Positions 5,966 to 26,400 of a stretch of DNA of 32,536 bases are shown piece after piece. The translations under genes and the position numbers were made by a program. Origin of the DNA: a phage. The stretch lies in assembly GCA_012925625.1 (NCBI GenBank), contig GCA_012925625.1_3625.1. One strand, written 5' to 3'. The notes below the pieces were generated by a model. That model searched no databases. It was not told the DNA's origin and worked only from the letters and a program-made list of their open reading frames with translations. The stretch's first letter is position 1. Each line of letters begins with the position of its first letter.

Positions 5966-6026
5966 TAAGATAATGACACGGGCCAAAAGGCCCCCTAAAC
6001 CAGAACCACATAAAAAGGTAAACATC

Positions 6027-6290
6027 ATGAAACGTCTTGATCAGCTCAAACTAGTTCAGTACATGGCCTACAAAGTTCTTGAAGTCCAAAAAGGTAGCAA
6101 AAAAGAGGTTTGCGAGAAAGCGTACAAGATCTTTACCCGTAAAAAAGATGATTGGATGTTACGCCAGACCAAAAAAGCCGATATCTTGGGGTACCTGGAA
6201 GAAGAGATCCGGCTTGAAGAACAAGAAGAGATCCGCCGTAGTGAAGCAGATTATCAGGCAGCTTGGGAAAACTGGATGAGTAACAAATAA
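6027..6290 (+). CDS. hypothetical Lys/Glu-rich protein (87 aa)
   Basis: Start at ATG 6027 with RBS AAAAGGT; the track ORF extends upstream without an RBS. Confidence 0.55.
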   Translation: MKRLDQLKLVQYMAYKVLEVQKGSKKEVCEKAYKIFTRKKDDWMLRQTKKADILGYLEEEIRLEEQEEIRRSEADYQAAWENWMSNK

Positions 6291-6357
6291 TACAACAAGT
6301 TACATGGTCAGGGGGCAATAAAGCCCCTTGATCGCATAAAAATTATGCCATCCTTGG

Positions 6358-6386
6358 TTGACAAGGATCGGCAGTTTTGCTATATT
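6358..6386 (+). promoter_or_regulatory. sigma70-like promoter TTGACA-N17-TATATT
   Basis: Near-consensus hexamers about 50 nt upstream of the 6435 ATG. Confidence 0.5.
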
Positions 6387-6434
6387 CTTTTTGAAGGGAA
6401 GTTGTAAGAAAATTAACTAAGAGGTAAAAACACC

Positions 6435-6854
6435 ATGAACATTAAATCTAATAATCCGGCATATAGCTTTGATAACGCTTTTTGTCACGGTCCGGCGGCG
6501 AAAGGATTCGAAATCGATGGTAAACTAATTATTGTCAATGTTGACGGGGAAGAGGTTGCAGTATATCCGGTGGCAGACGTTAAAAGCCGTTTGCAATGCC
6601 GCATGGATGTTACCGCCTACCAGCTTGATCCGGTCCGCATAGTTGCCCTGGTCCTGGAGGAAGAGATCAAAGCCATGCATCATAGCAACAAGTTTATCGG
6701 TGACGCGCAAGATAATATGAAGGTATGCCGCTATAAAGTTAATGAAGTGCTTAAAGAATATGGCTTCAAAGATCTGATGATCAAGCGTGATGAAAAATTC
6801 CGTTATCGTAACGACCTGGCAAATCGAATCTATGAAATATACGAATCATTATAA
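6435..6854 (+). CDS. hypothetical protein (139 aa)
   Basis: RBS AAGAGGTAAAAACACC then ATG; last plus-strand gene before the ORF-poor region. Confidence 0.65.
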   Translation: MNIKSNNPAYSFDNAFCHGPAAKGFEIDGKLIIVNVDGEEVAVYPVADVKSRLQCRMDVTAYQLDPVRIVALVLEEEIKAMHHSNKFIGDAQDNMKVCRYKVNEVLKEYGFKDLMIKRDEKFRYRNDLANRIYEIYESL

Positions 6855-6872
6855 TTTCTTAACTAAACTATC

Positions 6873-6900
6873 AGGGGCTTTAAAAGGCCCCTTTCTTTTT
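6873..6900 (+). terminator. intrinsic terminator GGGGCTTT-aa-AAGGCCCC + TTTCTTTTTG
   Basis: 8-bp stem with T-tract; ends the plus-strand transcription unit. Confidence 0.65.
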
Positions 6901-7517
6901 GTCTGTATTTCTCCTACCACAAACGGCCCTACCTGGCAAATGGAATAATTGACGAGCCATCAATCCCACACACTGTACAAATATACATGTAAAATAGCTA
7001 TTGCATAACCTTTCATTGTGTGGTAGCGGTGCTATTTTTTACCCGTTTTCCTTCCAAAGTTGCACGTAATGCAGTTATTGCACAAAATTTAACCTGATGC
7101 ACATCTTCAATACCTTGTCAACAACTAAAAATCTTTATAAGTCATACACTTACATAACCACAAAAGCGTGTTCTACGCGAAAAATCGAGTATAACTATAG
7201 CCGCCAGATCTCAGAATTCACGTACGCACGCCATTCTATAGCCTGCAAAGTATTTATTCCAACCACAGAATAACGGAATAGTCAATACCTGCATAAAATA
7301 ATTATTCGTGTAAACTGCATAACATAAATCAGCTCAGGTGTCAACATTTTTCGTAAACAGTCCGAAATTATCACGATGAGTTATCATAAACAGAGAAATC
7401 TTTAGTCGTCTAATGTTTACTGTACATTACTATACTGACTGGAATCATTAGATGACTAAGAGAAAGATAAGAAATAATTAATAATGTAATTATTTTACCT
7501 GTAACAATAAGGCAACT

Positions 7518-7750
7518 ATGCAAACGAATGGCATGGCGCGACGGAGTCGCGACATAATATAAAAGCAGTAACCATCACCCCCGTGATAGTTTGTCTGCAA
7601 ACTATTAATCAGATCATAGTTGCCTTGTATTTAGTTAATCATGACATAACAAGCAAGGCAACTATAGATCTTCTAATAGTTGCCCTGCTTTTATATTATG
7701 TCATATATTATTATCTTGTTAATTGTTTTCATGCAAACGAATGGCATGGC
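7518..7750. repeat. two copies of a 20-mer direct repeat ATGCAAACGAATGGCATGGC (7518-7537 and 7731-7750) bracketing an inverted-repeat cluster
   Basis: Exact 20/20 identity read directly from the sequence. Confidence 0.7.
7586..7684. repeat. cluster of ATAGTTGCC/GGCAACTAT inverted repeats, with further copies of the 9-mer at 7511-7519 and 7676-7684
   Basis: Palindrome ATAGTTTG-tctg-CAAACTAT (7586-7605); 12-bp inverted repeat ATAGTTGCCTTG (7616-7627) / CAAGGCAACTAT (7654-7665). Confidence 0.65.
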
Positions 7751-7851
7751 TTATCATATCTGCGTGAACAGTCTATGCATAAACAGTGAGATATGGAATA
7801 GTAACAATTGTTATTGTGTGCCAGATAAGTTTTGTCATGAAGTGCTTAAGG

Positions 7852-7879
7852 TGTCAAAAGTGACAATTTTGTCAGACAA
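7852..7879. promoter_or_regulatory. paired TGTCA/TGACA palindromes (TGTCA-aaag-TGACA and TTGTC-a-GACAA), operator-like
   Basis: Two perfect short palindromes 4 nt apart; further TTGTCA copies at 7833 and 7895. Confidence 0.35.
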
Positions 7880-8171
7880 GTTTTTCTCCTCTTTGTCAAG
7901 TGCTGCATGAAAAATTTACAATCTGGTATGGTAGCATTTTTGCGGCCCCGTTTACATTCAGTGATGTATGTATAAGCCTTGTTGTGTGGGCGTTTAGACG
8001 TCTAGACGGTTGGAAGTCCACAGGTCAATATCTAATCTATCGGCTGCTAACTATATCCCACACAAATAGTAAGAAATATAATTGTTATGCGTGTAAACAG
8101 TAACTCATGGTATCAATCCCTGTATGTATCGCCAGTGGTGCGCATAATAGGTATTATGTTAAATTGCCCGT

Positions 8172-8206
8172 AATGATAACTATTCTCACAATGATAGGTA
8201 TTCTCA
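8172..8206. repeat. iteron-like tandem repeat AATGATA(AC/GG)TATTCTCA x2, with related ATAGGTATT copies at 8148 and 8222
   Basis: Two 17-mers with 2 mismatches at an 18-bp period. Confidence 0.55.
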
Positions 8207-8401
8207 TTCACCCCCGCAAGATAGGTTGCAAATGTTGTGCCACTGTGTGAACGGCCTGGCCTATTAATTTGCCTCACTGCCTCGATATTTGAGAATTATT
8301 ATAAGAATGAGAAGTATTCCCATTTCGTCCGCCTGGCAGCACTCCAGTCGCTACCGCTCATGACAGGGCAGAACTGGGTCCATTCAGATATTTCTGGCTG
8401 A

Positions 8402-8634
8402 CTCTTCAGGCCTGTGTGGGAAAAGCCAACCTCTCCGGCGGCGGGGAGGGGTTTGTCAGGAAAATTGCAGGTCAATTAAAAAATTTACGGGGTATATGAA
8501 GCGCTCTTCAGATAAGGCATGTATTATGGGATGAAACCCTCTTCAGGCAATGATATTTGTGGGTGTGATATTTGCTGGAAAGCCAGATATGACGGGACTC
8601 CCGGCGGGGCAGGGGTAGTACAGACAGGGAAAAT
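8402..8634. repeat. duplicated G-rich element: copy A 8402-8464, copy B 8540-8634
   Basis: Both copies run CTTCAGG...GTGGG...AAAGCC...CTCC(C)GGCGG(C)GGGG(C)AGGGG...CAGG(G)AAAAT in the same order. Confidence 0.55.
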
Positions 8635-9312
8635 ATGGAGGATGTGGTTGGGTAAATTGATCAGGCAGGTAGAGTATGGAATATGTTACAGGTATGTTAA
8701 ATAGGGAGGCTGAATATCTGTAGGATTTGTGTGTAAAATCAAAGACTTAAGTGGTGTTGTGGTATTTTCTATAAATAATTCAAGTTTAATAGGTAATATT
8801 TGTCTCTATCCGCTTTGTGTGGTAAACAAATTCAGATGGTGTTGGTTTACAAGTGTATACATAATATACAAATTAAAGATACAAGAAACCCCCCCTCCCC
8901 CTTCGGCTACCATTCACCTTTTCCTCTGACTGGTACTTAAACACTTATTCAGACTCTTCAGGTTATCACCCATATATCATATGGCAGTGACTGGTGTCCT
9001 CCGGCCCCTCTTTCGTCACCCGTCCGCTTCGCCATGCTAATGCCATAGCCAATGGTTCGGTTGTTCACCCTGTTCACTCAGGTGTATCTCCATACCCCTT
9101 CAAACCGAAGAGAACAGAAAACCCGAATTACTCGGTAAAAGAAAAGAGAAGAACTTAATTTTATCAGGATAGGCAAGAATGTCAAGGCATGACTGCTCAC
9201 TAAACAAGCAAACAGTCATGTGTGGGAGGTAAGTGATTGTGGTGGTGGGAAATTTAGTTGAAAGATGTGTTATAGGTGCTTCCAGCACTTTAGCCGGGCA
9301 GCTAATTGTGTG

Positions 9313-9528
9313 TCAGTCCAGCGGTTCATCCTCTACTTCACTGAAATCAATGTTCATGGTCTCTTCCCAACCATCGATCTCAGCACAAGAGTGGAGTTCT
9401 TTAGGGTTTACTCCCAAAGCCTCAGCAACAGAGTCTATATTTAACACCTCTGGCAGGTATGTTTCATCGAATTCAAGGTAAATCAGGCCACGAGTGTTGT
9501 CAGCTCCACCAAATATTTCTATCTTCAT
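9313..9528 (-). CDS. hypothetical acidic protein (71 aa), last gene of the minus-strand unit
   Basis: ORF with RBS GAGGAG upstream of ATG at 9528. Confidence 0.55.
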   Translation of the reverse strand: MKIEIFGGADNTRGLIYLEFDETYLPEVLNIDSVAEALGVNPKELHSCAEIDGWEETMNIDFSEVEDEPLD

Positions 9529-9649
9529 GAAATCTCCTCTGGAAATGAGAGTGTGAACAGGGTTTTATACGTTCCAATGCACTGGAATTATACACGTTTG
9601 CCTCTTCAGGCCATGCTTTAGCATGAGGAACCTGTGTGGGCTCGGTGCT

Positions 9650-9862
9650 TCATAGTCTGCCACCTCTGAACTCTTCGTGCTCAGGCATAATGGAGAACCA
9701 GATGTCTACGATGTCTTCCCACGTTAGGTCATCAGCCTCAGGATCTACCTGGAGCGAAGATGGAGAATCTTCAGAATCGAAGTTTTCCTCTTTCACTGGC
9801 TCAGACAATGGACATATGGTCACTCCTTCGGATGTCTCTTCAGGTGCATGCGTGTTGATCAT
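9650..9862 (-). CDS. hypothetical acidic protein (70 aa)
   Basis: ORF in track; ATGA overlap with the upstream small ORF. Confidence 0.5.
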   Translation of the reverse strand: MINTHAPEETSEGVTICPLSEPVKEENFDSEDSPSSLQVDPEADDLTWEDIVDIWFSIMPEHEEFRGGRL

Positions 9863-9948
9863 GTTCCACCCGTGAGTATTCCGGCAACAGCCGCTATGGA
9901 CGTAATGATCATCAGGATCACTACTAAAACTTCGGACAATGTTCTCAT
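9859..9948 (-). CDS. small hydrophobic peptide (29 aa), not in ORF track
   Basis: MRTLSEVLVVILMIITSIAAVAGILTGGT; directly downstream of the 9981-10009 promoter; weak RBS. Confidence 0.3.
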   Translation of the reverse strand: MRTLSEVLVVILMIITSIAAVAGILTGGT

Positions 9949-9980
9949 TGTGTATTCCATATTCTACAAACTATGTGTGG

Positions 9981-10009
9981 ATACTATCACTGGAGCGGTA
10001 ATGTGTCAA
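9981..10009 (-). promoter_or_regulatory. sigma70-like promoter (minus strand) TTGACA-N17-TAGTAT
   Basis: Reverse complement of 10004-10009 is TTGACA and of 9981-9986 is TAGTAT. Confidence 0.45.
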
Positions 10010-10170
10010 TAGAAACGCCGCGAGGGTTTGGTTAAAATCCGAGCGTATGGTGATTTGGGTCAAAACGGACGTGCGTTCTCGCTACGCTCGAAATATGGAG
10101 TTGTTTGTAGGAAGCTCTTAAACTCTCTGTAACGAGATTATCTGTCCAAGGTATGCAATCGTGCACCAGA

Positions 10171-10197
10171 TAAAGAAAAGGACGCCACAGAGCGTCC
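10171..10197 (-). terminator. intrinsic terminator (minus strand) GGACGC-loop-GCGTCC + TTTTCTTTA
   Basis: Hairpin and T-tract on the minus strand immediately after the 10223 stop. Confidence 0.55.
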
Positions 10198-10222
10198 TAG
10201 GTGTCTTAAATTTGATATTTTG

Positions 10223-10534
10223 CTATACCCATGAGGGCTTATCAAGGTTGGAGTAGCTAAAAGGTGTCAAAAGGTGACTGTCAAAATCTCTCAAACTATC
10301 CAAATCTTTTTCCTCGTCCTGACACCATCTGTGCCTACATTTATTGTTGTAGTGCATAGAATGCATAGCGTTCTGCAACTTAACAGGCACAATTGATTCA
10401 GGAGTAGTTAGTATTGTTGGGTATGCCAGAACCACCTCAAACAGTGGAAACACATCGAAACTAAAATCTACCTCTGCAGAGGTTGATGGCATGTAGGAGT
10501 ATTTAGCCGTCTTTGTAGACATAATCCACCTCAC
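10223..10534 (-). CDS. hypothetical protein (103 aa)
   Basis: ORF; start overlaps upstream stop (ATGA-type coupling). Confidence 0.55.
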   Translation of the reverse strand: MRWIMSTKTAKYSYMPSTSAEVDFSFDVFPLFEVVLAYPTILTTPESIVPVKLQNAMHSMHYNNKCRHRWCQDEEKDLDSLRDFDSHLLTPFSYSNLDKPSWV

Positions 10535-10857
10535 ACAGGTTTGATAATACCTTCACCGAATAACTCTTCATATCTAATCTTATCCGGATCCCACTCCTGG
10601 ATAATTTCGAAGACAATATCCAACCCTGGGATAATCACTTCTCCAGTGTCAAGTTTGGCAAGAACAAAACCAGAAGGCTGAATGGTTTCCCAGTTGCGAC
10701 GATTGGAATAGAAGACCTCGAAAATATCACCGACCTTGATCTGTTGATCAAGATGTTCAAGGTTCTCTTTCATGTAGACGCAGCGTATTTTTCGTGCAGG
10801 CCATAGACCACCTGCATCGCGTTCATTCAATTCTTTTACAGTGATCGGTATACTCAT
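10531..10857 (-). CDS. hypothetical protein (108 aa)
   Basis: ORF in track with a plausible RBS. Confidence 0.6.
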   Translation of the reverse strand: MSIPITVKELNERDAGGLWPARKIRCVYMKENLEHLDQQIKVGDIFEVFYSNRRNWETIQPSGFVLAKLDTGEVIIPGLDIVFEIIQEWDPDKIRYEELFGEGIIKPV

Positions 10858-10877
10858 CTCAAATCTCCTTCATAGAT

Positions 10878-10903
10878 AGTAAAAAGAGGGGCCCAAGCCC
10901 CTC
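10878..10903 (-). terminator. intrinsic terminator (minus strand) GAGGGGC-ttgg-GCCCCTC + TTTTTAC
   Basis: 7-bp GC stem and T-tract after the 10913 stop. Confidence 0.55.
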
Positions 10904-10912
10904 TCTTTGTCA

Positions 10913-11218
10913 TTATTCTACAGAGCGTTTGAACAGAATGTCTGCCTCTGACATGTGCTCAACCTCTTCTTCGATTTTAGCTCGACGTTTTTCAGCCTCA
11001 TATCGAATATCGAACTCGGTAGCCACCAGAGATTTGATGAATTTAGGAGAATACAGATGATCCTGCTTCTCAACAAGAATGATATCCTTGATGGCATCTT
11101 TCAGATCTTTAATCTGAAGTTGGAGTTCCACCAGTTCTTCGATTGTTTTGCGAAGGCGATCACGCTCTGCAGTGTCAGAAGGAAGAGAGGTGAACAGTTC
11201 AACTTTAGATTTAGCCAT
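10913..11218 (-). CDS. hypothetical coiled-coil protein (101 aa)
   Basis: RBS AAGGAG upstream; charged heptad-like sequence. Confidence 0.6.
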   Translation of the reverse strand: MAKSKVELFTSLPSDTAERDRLRKTIEELVELQLQIKDLKDAIKDIILVEKQDHLYSPKFIKSLVATEFDIRYEAEKRRAKIEEEVEHMSEADILFKRSVE

Positions 11219-25128: not shown

Positions 25129-26400
25129 TCAGCAACCACAACTTCCGTAGTGCTTAACCCGTTCTATAACTTCCGCTTGCTTACCTTTATTGTAAGGACG
25201 GGAGTTTGGACTAGACAGGTACCCGGATACACGTCTGATCACACTGATCGTTCCCTCTTCATGGTTTCCACACTCTGGGCATACGAATCCCTTAGCTGTT
25301 GCACTGAACTCACCAGAGAAACCACACTTAAGACATTTATCCACAGGCTGGTTGATACCAAAATACATAATGTGTTTATATCCGAAATCAACAAGAGCTT
25401 CCAAAGCATCTAAGTTGTTTTTCAGATTTGGTGTCTCTACGTATCCGATGTTGCCACCAGAAGAGATCATAGCAAAACCTTCCTCATACTCCCACTTATC
25501 AAAAGGCGAGCTATTGATCCATACTGGCTGATGGAAACTGTTGGTGAGATATTCATGCTCGTGCTTCAACACTTCAGGATATTCACGATCCAGACAGGTT
25601 GCAGCTTTATAGCATAGACTCTCAGAAGGGGTGCCGTACAAGCTAAACGCTAGTCTACTTTCCTTCTTGTATCGCTCACAAGCATCTCTCATGTGCTGAA
25701 GTATTCCAAGAGCTAAAGCCTTGTCACCCTCCCTGCCCAAAATCTGACAGGTTTCATACACACCAATATACCCAATACTGATGGAAGCGTACCCGTCATA
25801 GAAGAGTTTATCAATACTCTCTTCAGGATCCAGGCGAGCAAGAGCGCCTTCACACCACATGATAGGGTTCTGCCCTGCCTTTGTTCCTTTTAGACGGTTA
25901 ACCCTTACAAGGTGAGCCTCGTATGCAAGATCCAGGTATTCGTCAAGAACTGCAAAGAAATCAACACCTTCCGTTTTAGCTTTTGCCGCAATCATTGGCA
26001 GGTTAAGGCTAACAACGCCTAAGTTAAATCTGCCAAGGTATTTCTCCTCTCCTGTTTCCAAGTCATTGTATTTGCTAAGAAAACTCCGGCAACCCATGCT
26101 CGTTACTTTACCATCTGTCGAGCCTGTCACTTTACGATTTAGTGGAACAGAAACAAAGTCAGGATAAATCCGCTCTGCAGAGCATTCCAGAGCTAATCGT
26201 TTCAAATCATAGTTAGGATCTCCAGGGTTCATGTTGACACCCTCTTCTAGGAAGAACAGCACTTTAGGGAACACAGGTGTGATACGTTCTTCACCAAGAC
26301 CCATTTTGTGGACTTTCAAGTAGTTTTTGGTAATCATTCTACCAAATACTGAGGTGTCCAGACCTAAACTTAATGTGATAAAAGGGGTTTGCGGTCCCCA
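25129..26400 (-). CDS. nrdD: anaerobic ribonucleoside-triphosphate reductase, exon 2 (C-terminal part)
   Basis: Glycyl-radical motif RVSGYL, zinc-site CLKCG...CPECG; reading frame stays open upstream of the track ATG to 26400 (WGPQTPFITLSLGLDTS...). Confidence 0.8.
   Translation of the reverse strand, partial: WGPQTPFITLSLGLDTSVFGRMITKNYLKVHKMGLGEERITPVFPKVLFFLEEGVNMNPGDPNYDLKRLALECSAERIYPDFVSVPLNRKVTGSTDGKVTSMGCRSFLSKYNDLETGEEKYLGRFNLGVVSLNLPMIAAKAKTEGVDFFAVLDEYLDLAYEAHLVRVNRLKGTKAGQNPIMWCEGALARLDPEESIDKLFYDGYASISIGYIGVYETCQILGREGDKALALGILQHMRDACERYKKESRLAFSLYGTPSESLCYKAATCLDREYPEVLKHEHEYLTNSFHQPVWINSSPFDKWEYEEGFAMISSGGNIGYVETPNLKNNLDALEALVDFGYKHIMYFGINQPVDKCLKCGFSGEFSATAKGFVCPECGNHEEGTISVIRRVSGYLSSPNSRPYNKGKQAEVIERVKHYGSCGC

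Follow-up and report, generated by a model that had tools for sequence, protein, structure and literature searches.

A covarying nested-hairpin element beside the terminal repeat of Vequintavirus genomes, a candidate folded-DNA signal for genome-end processing or packaging

We describe an element of about 200 bp, built of nested hairpins, in a 32,536-nucleotide stretch of phage DNA (GCA_012925625.1), where it lies beside the direct terminal repeat (DTR) of the genome. This whole stretch is referred to as the window, and coordinates throughout are positions in it. The window is ~92% identical to ~120 records of Vequintavirus (rV5-like) coliphages. Its plus-strand genes stop at 6854 and its minus-strand genes come in from the right, where their terminator lies at 10198–10179; the two gene blocks converge on a stretch without long open reading frames (ORFs). 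No ORF of at least 80 amino acids was found between ~6,900 and 9,200, the small neighbouring genes are hypothetical, and a transfer RNA scan of the window gave zero genes. Window positions ~6,900–9,300 correspond to the 2.6-kb non-coding region of rV5, in which no observable ORFs were reported at 104013–106618 and which was drawn as a grey box labelled non-coding (PMC3606486); the counterpart non-coding region of Murica has also been noted (PMC4591320). The rV5 and Murica regions are the same locus as that in the window, and both papers record the absence of ORFs, with no function assigned, no link made to the terminal repeat and no structured element described. The non-coding region and the terminal redundancy are already published, whilst the literature searched yielded no account of a nested-hairpin element, conserved and covarying, next to the terminal repeat. 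Some database records label a hairpin here, as a terminator in Murica and Alma and as a repeat_region in isim.

The element consists of an outer stem, P1, a hairpin, P2, an inner stem, P3, and an alternative pairing that resembles the P4 hairpin of other genera. Its dominant feature is P1, a perfect 18-bp inverted repeat (7551–7568 / 7685–7702) whose arms enclose most of the other motifs. This repeat had been missed by the initial annotation of the locus, as had a GC hairpin at 7537–7551 and a hairpin ATCAC-CCCC-GTGAT at 7574–7587. What that annotation had listed, an inverted-repeat cluster bracketed by a direct repeat, is present in full, and the repeats are far above chance expectation. The 20-mer ATGCAAACGAATGGCATGGC occurs as exact copies at 7518–7537 and 7731–7750, the only two matches in the window even when up to three mismatches are allowed (0.01 expected), and the gaps between the 20-mers and the P1 arms are 13 and 28 nt. 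A perfect 12-bp inverted repeat is found at 7616–7627 / 7654–7665 with an AT-rich spacer of 26 nt. The 9-mer ATAGTTGCC has five copies in the 32.5-kb window, four of them within 174 bp at 7511(−), 7616(+), 7657(−) and 7676(+), which include the further copies annotated at 7511 and 7676; two dyads of the form AACTAT-N10-ATAGTTGCC are separated by 60 bp. The annotated palindrome ATAGTTTG-tctg-CAAACTAT is also there, at 7586–7605, yet its pairing is lost in 6 of 14 relatives, where the CAAACTAT arm reads CAATCTAT without compensation, and it is the weakest of the items first listed. The features of the region are, from left to right and with the strand where one is assigned:

6873–6892, plus strand: intrinsic terminator with an 8-bp stem (five GC pairs) and a T-run, conserved in relatives; the left limit of the gene-free region.
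7509–7519, minus strand: box A, AAGGCAACTAT, an extra upstream copy of box C, outside P1 and invariant in 14 relatives.
7518–7537, plus strand: 20-mer copy 1, found in every relative examined.
7537–7551: GC-rich hairpin CGCGAC-GGA-GTCGCG, abutting P1 and invariant within the genus (run 7537–7572).
7551–7568: P1 5′ arm, GACATAATATAAAAGCAG, half of the perfect 18-bp outer stem.
7570–7591: P2 hairpin AAC-c-ATCAC-CCCC-GTGAT-a-GTT, from the fold, immediately 3′ of the P1 5′ arm.
7586–7605: 8-bp palindrome, overlapping the 3′ strand of P2 and the base of an extended P3.
7616–7665: P3, in which box B (7616–7627) pairs with box C (7654–7665); a 13-bp helix in the fold.
7628–7653: P3 apical loop, AT-rich, tolerating substitutions and a 33-bp insertion in phage LL12.
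7676–7684, plus strand: box D, ATAGTTGCC, which can pair with box C in place of box B (93% complementary over 15 nt), in a position matching P4 of other genera.
7685–7702: P1 3′ arm, CTGCTTTTATATTATGTC, partner of the 5′ arm.
7731–7750, plus strand: 20-mer copy 2, kept although surrounded by hypervariable DNA.

About 90 bp upstream of the element there is a separate conserved inverted repeat at 7402–7459, with 22-nt arms (82% complementary) and a 14-nt loop, which overlaps two leftward promoter-like sites.

Conservation within the genus was assessed in an alignment of 14 vequintaviruses. Positions 7501–7704 are the best-conserved 200 bp of the non-coding DNA, with a majority frequency of 0.98–1.00, against ~0.93 for 6900–7500, and with runs of 36 and 35 bp in which no position varies. 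All four ATAGTTGCC boxes are invariant, the P1 arms vary by a single base in one arm of one phage, and indels are confined to loops or to positions outside the stems; the 33-bp insertion in LL12 is placed precisely in the apical loop that separates box B from box C, with the stems unchanged. This arrangement is conserved in the relatives, and its motifs are not randomly scattered through the Gotham genome (137,025 bp), where the 20-mer has just its two copies and the P1 arms are unique; of eight copies of the 9-mer there, four lie inside 174 bp and the others are single and scattered. The element is single-copy in 118 of the 120 records that carry its flanks. The exceptions are both entries for phage FV3 (NC_019517.1 / JQ031132.1), in which a single 20-mer runs straight into the sequence that lies beyond copy 2 in the window; exactly the 213 bp corresponding to window 7538–7750 are missing, and with them the whole structured element. 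Slipped-strand deletion of an inverted repeat lying between direct repeats classically gives a product of this kind, and the FV3 deletion may be genuine or may be a cloning or assembly slippage artefact. Scanning viral contigs with the 20-mer gave only two further contigs, both vequintavirus. A plasmid search with the element gave one match at 99.5% identity, CP057073.1 (PLSDB, 137,565 bp), which is filed as a non-mobilizable E. coli plasmid and is probably a mis-filed vequintavirus genome. Among the records, eighteen UNVERIFIED MG0656xx entries named ‘Campylobacter phage’ (e.g. MG065677.1) are ~92% identical to E. coli vequintaviruses here, and their host labels are doubtful.

The ends of many independent records lie no more than a few hundred bases from the element. 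The records of Gotham, EdH4, bov10K2 and bov11CS3 start at the boundary that follows ...CCGTCCGCC, window 8333, and those of Aya, Pr121LW and ECP2303 end in ...TGTCA, window 7874. The Gotham annotation has a 459-bp repeat_region at 1–459 and 136567–137025, equivalent to window 7875–8333 and starting GACAAG, and terminal redundancies of 458 bp have been published for EdH4 and HdK5 (Korf et al., PMC6563267). Because record ends, the Gotham annotation and the published redundancy agree in this way, virion DNA can be taken to carry a 459-bp DTR at 7875–8333; the repeat length is 458–460 bp throughout, among the matches listed. The element itself lies in unique DNA, with P1 ending at 7702 and the DTR starting at 7875, 172 bp between them. 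The cluster is one-sided, since no inverted repeat of at least 14 nt was found on the other DTR flank (8334–9320). The features between the element and the interior of the repeat are:

7705–7874, plus strand: hypervariable tract between the element and the DTR, majority frequency 0.52–0.81.
7869–7879: palindrome TTGTCaGACAA, with the DTR boundary 7874/7875 at its centre.
7875–8333: 459-bp DTR, placed by record ends, annotations and papers.
7893–7922, plus strand: sigma70-like promoter TTGTCA-18-TACAAT, conserved, 18 bp inside the DTR and reading into the genome.

The hypervariable tract has an optional 46-bp hairpin insert; its GTRAACAGT-like repeats vary in number, and its TGTCA repeats continue as far as the cut site. 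The arrays of GTRAACAGT-like and TGTCA repeats fill 7751–7874; GTRAACAGT has four copies in the window against 0.5 expected, in fixed orientation. The insert of ~46 bp, found just after 7704 in PMBT16, bov10K2, ECO111, Aya and LL12, carries the GC hairpins CACCC-GAAG-GGGTG and GGTGAC..GTCACC and is terminator-like on the minus strand. Beyond the boundary, the promoter at 7893–7922 reads into ~1.3 kb without a convincing ORF and shares the motif TTGTCAAG with phage KPP-1, where it adjoins the DTR boundary.

Several further sequences were noted in the DTR flank and at the edge of the non-coding region. The sequence CTCTTCAGG has six plus-strand copies in the window against 0.32 expected (0 of 100 shuffles), five in gene-poor DNA beyond the DTR (8402, 8539, 8954, 9602 and 9836) and one at 25819; it is found inside the KPP-1 DTR too, as CCTCTTCAGG (L019 ~2598), and could be a phage-specific promoter or processing motif. 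The far DTR flank also has degenerate G-rich direct repeats, CGGCGGGG(C)AGGGGT, at 8439–8456 / 8602–8619 and a pair ATGAA(G/A)C(G/C)CTCTTCAG at 8496–8511 / 8531–8546, the repeats across 8439–8619 suggesting a loose repeated unit of ~145–160 bp. At the edge of the non-coding region, a near-consensus promoter on the minus strand (TTGACA-16-TAAAAT with TG, 11/12; 9158–9185) has a small terminator-like hairpin within ~25 nt (9123–9135, minus strand), and the two could represent a very short transcript or an attenuator.

Counterparts of the element exist in three other genera. Used as a DNA query for other genera, the DTR proved genus-specific and had no reach beyond the genus; the cross-genus search was made with the non-coding region of KPP-1. 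Homologs at 74–80% identity were found in Seunavirus (PVP-SE1, GAP31, LNA4 and EspYZU15), Mydovirus (Mydo and DP) and Henunavirus (pEp_SNUABM_01), and in the last of these, an Erwinia phage, the detectable stretch is only the left arm and adjoining interior of the inverted-repeat cluster. Each of the eight phages from the three other genera has a perfect or near-perfect outer repeat of 17–22 bp with arms 164–225 nt apart. Across nine phages and four genera the outer arms are 17–22 bp long and differ in sequence, with a spacing of 116–225 bp; examples are AGCGACACAATAACACGGGAG, ...CACGAGAG, GACACTATAACACGAGAG, ...ACTATAACACGAGGG and, in the Erwinia phage, GCCACCTATAAAAGCAAGTAG. The Erwinia arm has TATAAAAGCA in common with the window arm and its inner stem matches the other genera, so on sequence grounds this phage links the window group with the rest.

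When the nine sequences were folded independently, one topology was obtained throughout. TAAC and the P2 hairpin follow immediately after the 5′ arm in all genera, P3 is a long-range inner stem of 11–13 bp around a variable interior, and the P4 hairpin immediately precedes the 3′ arm, its stem differing between lineages (ATCACG/CGTGAT, ATCAAC/GTTGAT and ATTAGC/GCTAAT). At the position of the window's 7537–7551 hairpin, a GC block, GCGAGCGTAGCGAGCG (alignment columns 1–16), is conserved in the other genera. Folding was done on each sequence separately because MAFFT placed the divergent arms wrongly when the window or the Erwinia phage was included, and the formal count of pairs was restricted to the six sequences that align cleanly. 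In these six, 97.6% of cells are paired, compared with 27–50% when the partners are slid. Five pairs (10 cells) have changed on both sides and none on one side only, and the observed covariation score was reached by 0 of 500 shuffles; in the P2 counterpart hairpin the covariation is at pair 32/46. All of the changes are Watson–Crick, with no G·U intermediate among the six aligned sequences. As to which strand folds, wobble pairs give no lead, being all but absent from the stems, and single-sequence imperfections in 241Ecol and LNA4 point in opposite directions; the covariation fits DNA hairpins as well as it fits an RNA structure.

These comparisons support and sharpen the suggestion, made in the initial annotation, of a cruciform-forming element: the motifs form the strands of nested stems, in which compensatory substitutions have preserved the pairing from genus to genus. 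Since the stem changes between genera are Watson–Crick compensated, the boxes are stem strands and not just protein sites. The other suggestion made there, of a multi-site binding region such as an origin or operator array, could also apply. The invariance of the boxes within the genus fits protein contacts, and sequence-specific contacts to them may be made, but covariation in four separate stems is unexpected from a single binding protein.

The association with a terminal repeat is also found outside the genus, in Mydovirus. KPP-1, of the same subfamily, has a 514-bp DTR of T7 type, shown by its doubled coverage and by PhageTerm (PMC9862379), and the element lies 308 bp from it on the same promoter-proximal side as in the window. 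Phage DP is annotated with a 514-bp terminal repeat_region, 237 bp downstream of its element. In both KPP-1 and DP the element is a perfect 21-bp inverted repeat enclosing hairpins, close to the promoter-proximal DTR boundary. Two further observations concern these relatives. A P2-type palindrome, TGATAA-N4-TTATCA, occurs four times in KPP-1 (L019 3047–3068, 3441–3462, 3499–3520 and 3643–3664), with copies inside the element, upstream of it and 17–38 bp from the DTR boundary, a placement that hints at a shared protein site joining element and cut site. Between the element and the DTR, a terminator-like hairpin GGCCT...AGGCC followed by TGATTTTGAG is conserved in KPP-1 (L019 3233–3248, minus strand) and PVP-SE1 (L020 1357–1372, plus strand) and has no counterpart in the window.

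The explanation to which we incline, tentatively, is that this is a folded-DNA cis element for T7-like concatemer-junction processing, regeneration of the DTR, or packaging. The nested anatomy, its place next to the DTR, its conservation within the genus, the topology shared with three other genera, the compensatory changes and a layout parallel to that of the T7 right end are all observed; from them we infer that it is DNA that folds and that it acts in end processing or packaging. During concatemer maturation, a single strand displaced beside the terminal repeat would fold through P1–P4. The fold might then serve as a recognition structure for terminase or the nicking machinery, or a fold-back 3′ end might prime copying of the adjacent repeat, giving a full DTR for each packaged genome. 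In the primer version, the 3′ end of the minus strand would lie at the left arm of P1, pair with the right arm and be extended across 7703–8333. The TGTCA and GTRAACAGT arrays, together with the palindromic boundary, would form a duplex tract for protein binding and cutting.

A more specific form of this scheme, which we consider doubtful, would have the arms kept complementary by continual gene conversion, as a 3′ end at the outer stem self-primes across the 459-bp repeat. Under that self-priming scheme only Watson–Crick compensated states would be seen, because one arm is proofread against the other in each cycle. If it were true, a whole subfamily of large myoviruses would share a conserved ‘terminal-repeat regenerator’ that is defined by its structure.

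Several points weigh against a folded-DNA role in end processing or packaging. The FV3 record that lacks the element describes a plaque-forming phage; should this record be correct, packaging can do without the element, at least under laboratory conditions. Since the length of the spacer between element and DTR is hypervariable, the element could act on the cut site only in a way that is independent of distance. The DTR boundaries were placed from the ends of database records, the annotations of two records and two papers, and among the phages compared they come from Vequintavirus and Mydovirus but not from Seunavirus or Henunavirus. The T7 feature with which we compare the element is a single imperfect hairpin, whereas elements of the window type are nested structures of 150–290 nt with a perfect outer stem of 18–22 bp. 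Finally, read-through transcription or a phage-specific promoter could make a transcript of the locus, as an RNA role would require.

A replication origin or priming site is a possibility that we rate as rather unlikely. Here hairpins on unwound DNA would recruit the phage primase-helicase or a host primosome, much as single-strand initiation signals do, or the AT-rich loop of P3 would unwind once an initiator had bound the boxes. In its favour are the repeated boxes, the AT-rich spacer and the orientation-fixed GTRAACAGT repeats; the gene-free region is conserved across genera, and pairing without G·U intermediates suits a DNA structure. However, the boxes are inverted stem partners and not a direct iteron array, the GTRAACAGT repeats sit in the variable tract, the AT-rich loop accepts a 33-bp insertion, and no initiator gene adjoins the element. 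The FV3 record without the element also argues against an origin, which would not be expected to be tied so closely, in two genera, to one boundary of the DTR. There is a switch in GC skew at the locus, but convergent transcription and the genome ends account for it, and the published skew analysis of rV5 was uninformative on the origin (PMC3606486).

Somewhat less probable again is a structured non-coding RNA of ~150–290 nt, or an RNase III site on the P1 duplex, with regulation or counter-defence as possible roles. The multi-stem architecture with its compensatory changes, and folding z-scores of −9.2 and −9.5, would be natural for RNA, and the minus strand folds better by 4–11 kcal/mol in nine of nine phages, which is a weak hint. 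A candidate minus-strand promoter has its −35 (TTTGCA) in 20-mer copy 2, its −10 (GATAAT) at 7715–7710 and a start at ~7703, the edge of P1, but this −10 lies in an indel-ridden stretch and is not conserved. The terminator-like hairpin between element and DTR in KPP-1 and PVP-SE1 would fit a transcription unit, and dispensability in FV3 would suit an accessory RNA. No conserved promoter or terminator frame around P1 was found in KPP-1, PVP-SE1 or the Erwinia phage, sigma70-type hits being at shuffle level and phage-specific promoters outside the scan. Rfam 15 gave zero relevant matches for window 6000–11000 and five loci from other genera at E values up to 1, with chance-level matches elsewhere. 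Stem changes that are Watson–Crick only, without G·U intermediates, are unusual for an RNA. Non-coding RNA as such has a precedent in the related phage PhiTE, which carries a functional non-coding RNA locus (PMC3475682). A ToxI-like RNA of the PhiTE kind was considered and ruled out, the tandem 36-nt repeats being absent here.

We regard as improbable a duplex array of sites for a dimeric protein (an operator, a terminase small-subunit site or a nucleoid-type site), in which the inverted repeats would simply be dyads. Its attraction is that the spacers vary around four invariant ATAGTTGCC boxes, that the AACTAT-N10-ATAGTTGCC dyads stand 60 bp apart, and that the TGATAA-N4-TTATCA copies of KPP-1 also occur outside the element. 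Against this, four different stems covary independently across genera, the arms of 18–22 bp are fully complementary though 116–225 bp apart, unlike protein half-sites, and no regulator gene adjoins. A signal that pauses genome entry, by analogy with phage T5, is very unlikely. The injection-stop region of T5 is a conserved non-coding tract of repeats, inverted repeats and palindromes inside a 10-kb repeat, where it controls two-step DNA transfer, and a gene-free, repeat-rich conserved region beside a terminal repeat would resemble it. Two-step DNA transfer is not known in the Vequintavirinae. It is also only at the opposite physical end that the DTR promoter is directed inward, a hint that this other end is the first to enter the cell. 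Least credible of all is a miniature mobile element with a target-site duplication, for which direct repeats bracket an inverted-repeat unit and FV3, with one 20-mer and no insert, would be the empty site; we reject it, as the arms stand 13 and 28 nt from the 20-mers, the element is single-copy in each genome and there is no genuine plasmid match. As counterparts occupy the corresponding gap in four genera, the element must be ancient, and FV3 would represent a secondary loss through the direct repeats.

The candidate cis element, sharply bounded and defined by its structure, offers a first approach to the function of the 2.6-kb non-coding region, on record since the rV5 genome was described. 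The Vequintavirinae, including rV5, PVP-SE1, FFH2 and the Klebsiella mydoviruses, are much used in phage therapy and biocontrol, and a practical consequence is guidance on where to open these genomes in database records and which DNA to retain during engineering or rebooting. Natural variants suited to testing the role of the element are available in the FV3 record, the LL12 loop insertion and the genus-specific arms.

How short-DTR ends are regenerated and cut is understood in T7 and T3 alone, and there in outline, with the requirements in cis still ill defined. The right end of T7 has an imperfect 19-nt inverted repeat at 39,568–39,608 with a 3-nt loop, then 169 bp packed with CCTAAGG/CCTAAAG repeats, then the 160-bp terminal repeat from 39,778. 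The order is the same as in the window: an inverted repeat in unique DNA, short direct repeats, and a short exact terminal repeat. The spacing is also alike, at 169 bp in T7 and 172 bp in the window, where the arrangement is present on one side only, whilst there is no sequence similarity between the two. Chung, Nardone and Hinkle (1990) reportedly found hairpin-ended right ends at the T7 inverted repeat and proposed them as intermediates in duplication of the terminal repeat. Maturation in T7 is coupled to the phage's own RNA polymerase, which these myoviruses lack. The replication module of rV5 is T7-like, with a family A polymerase and a gp4-type primase-helicase (PMC3606486), and the Gotham annotation likewise shows a T7-like module. 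Packaging of T7 phagemids needs a pac signal as well as the terminal repeat (PMC13236587), and packaging recognition sequences and specificity map near termini (PMC3276506).

Terminase arrays such as the R sites of lambda cosB, the pac hexamers of phage P1 and the pacL/pacR sites of SPP1 offer a second comparison, being short repeated motifs near a cut site, much as the TGTCA and GTRAACAGT repeats of the window run to the palindromic boundary. Such arrays act as duplex protein sites without selected intramolecular pairing, in contrast to the four covarying stems of the present element. A processing or packaging signal associated with a terminal repeat is a known kind of cis element; what would be new here is its distinctive nested structure.

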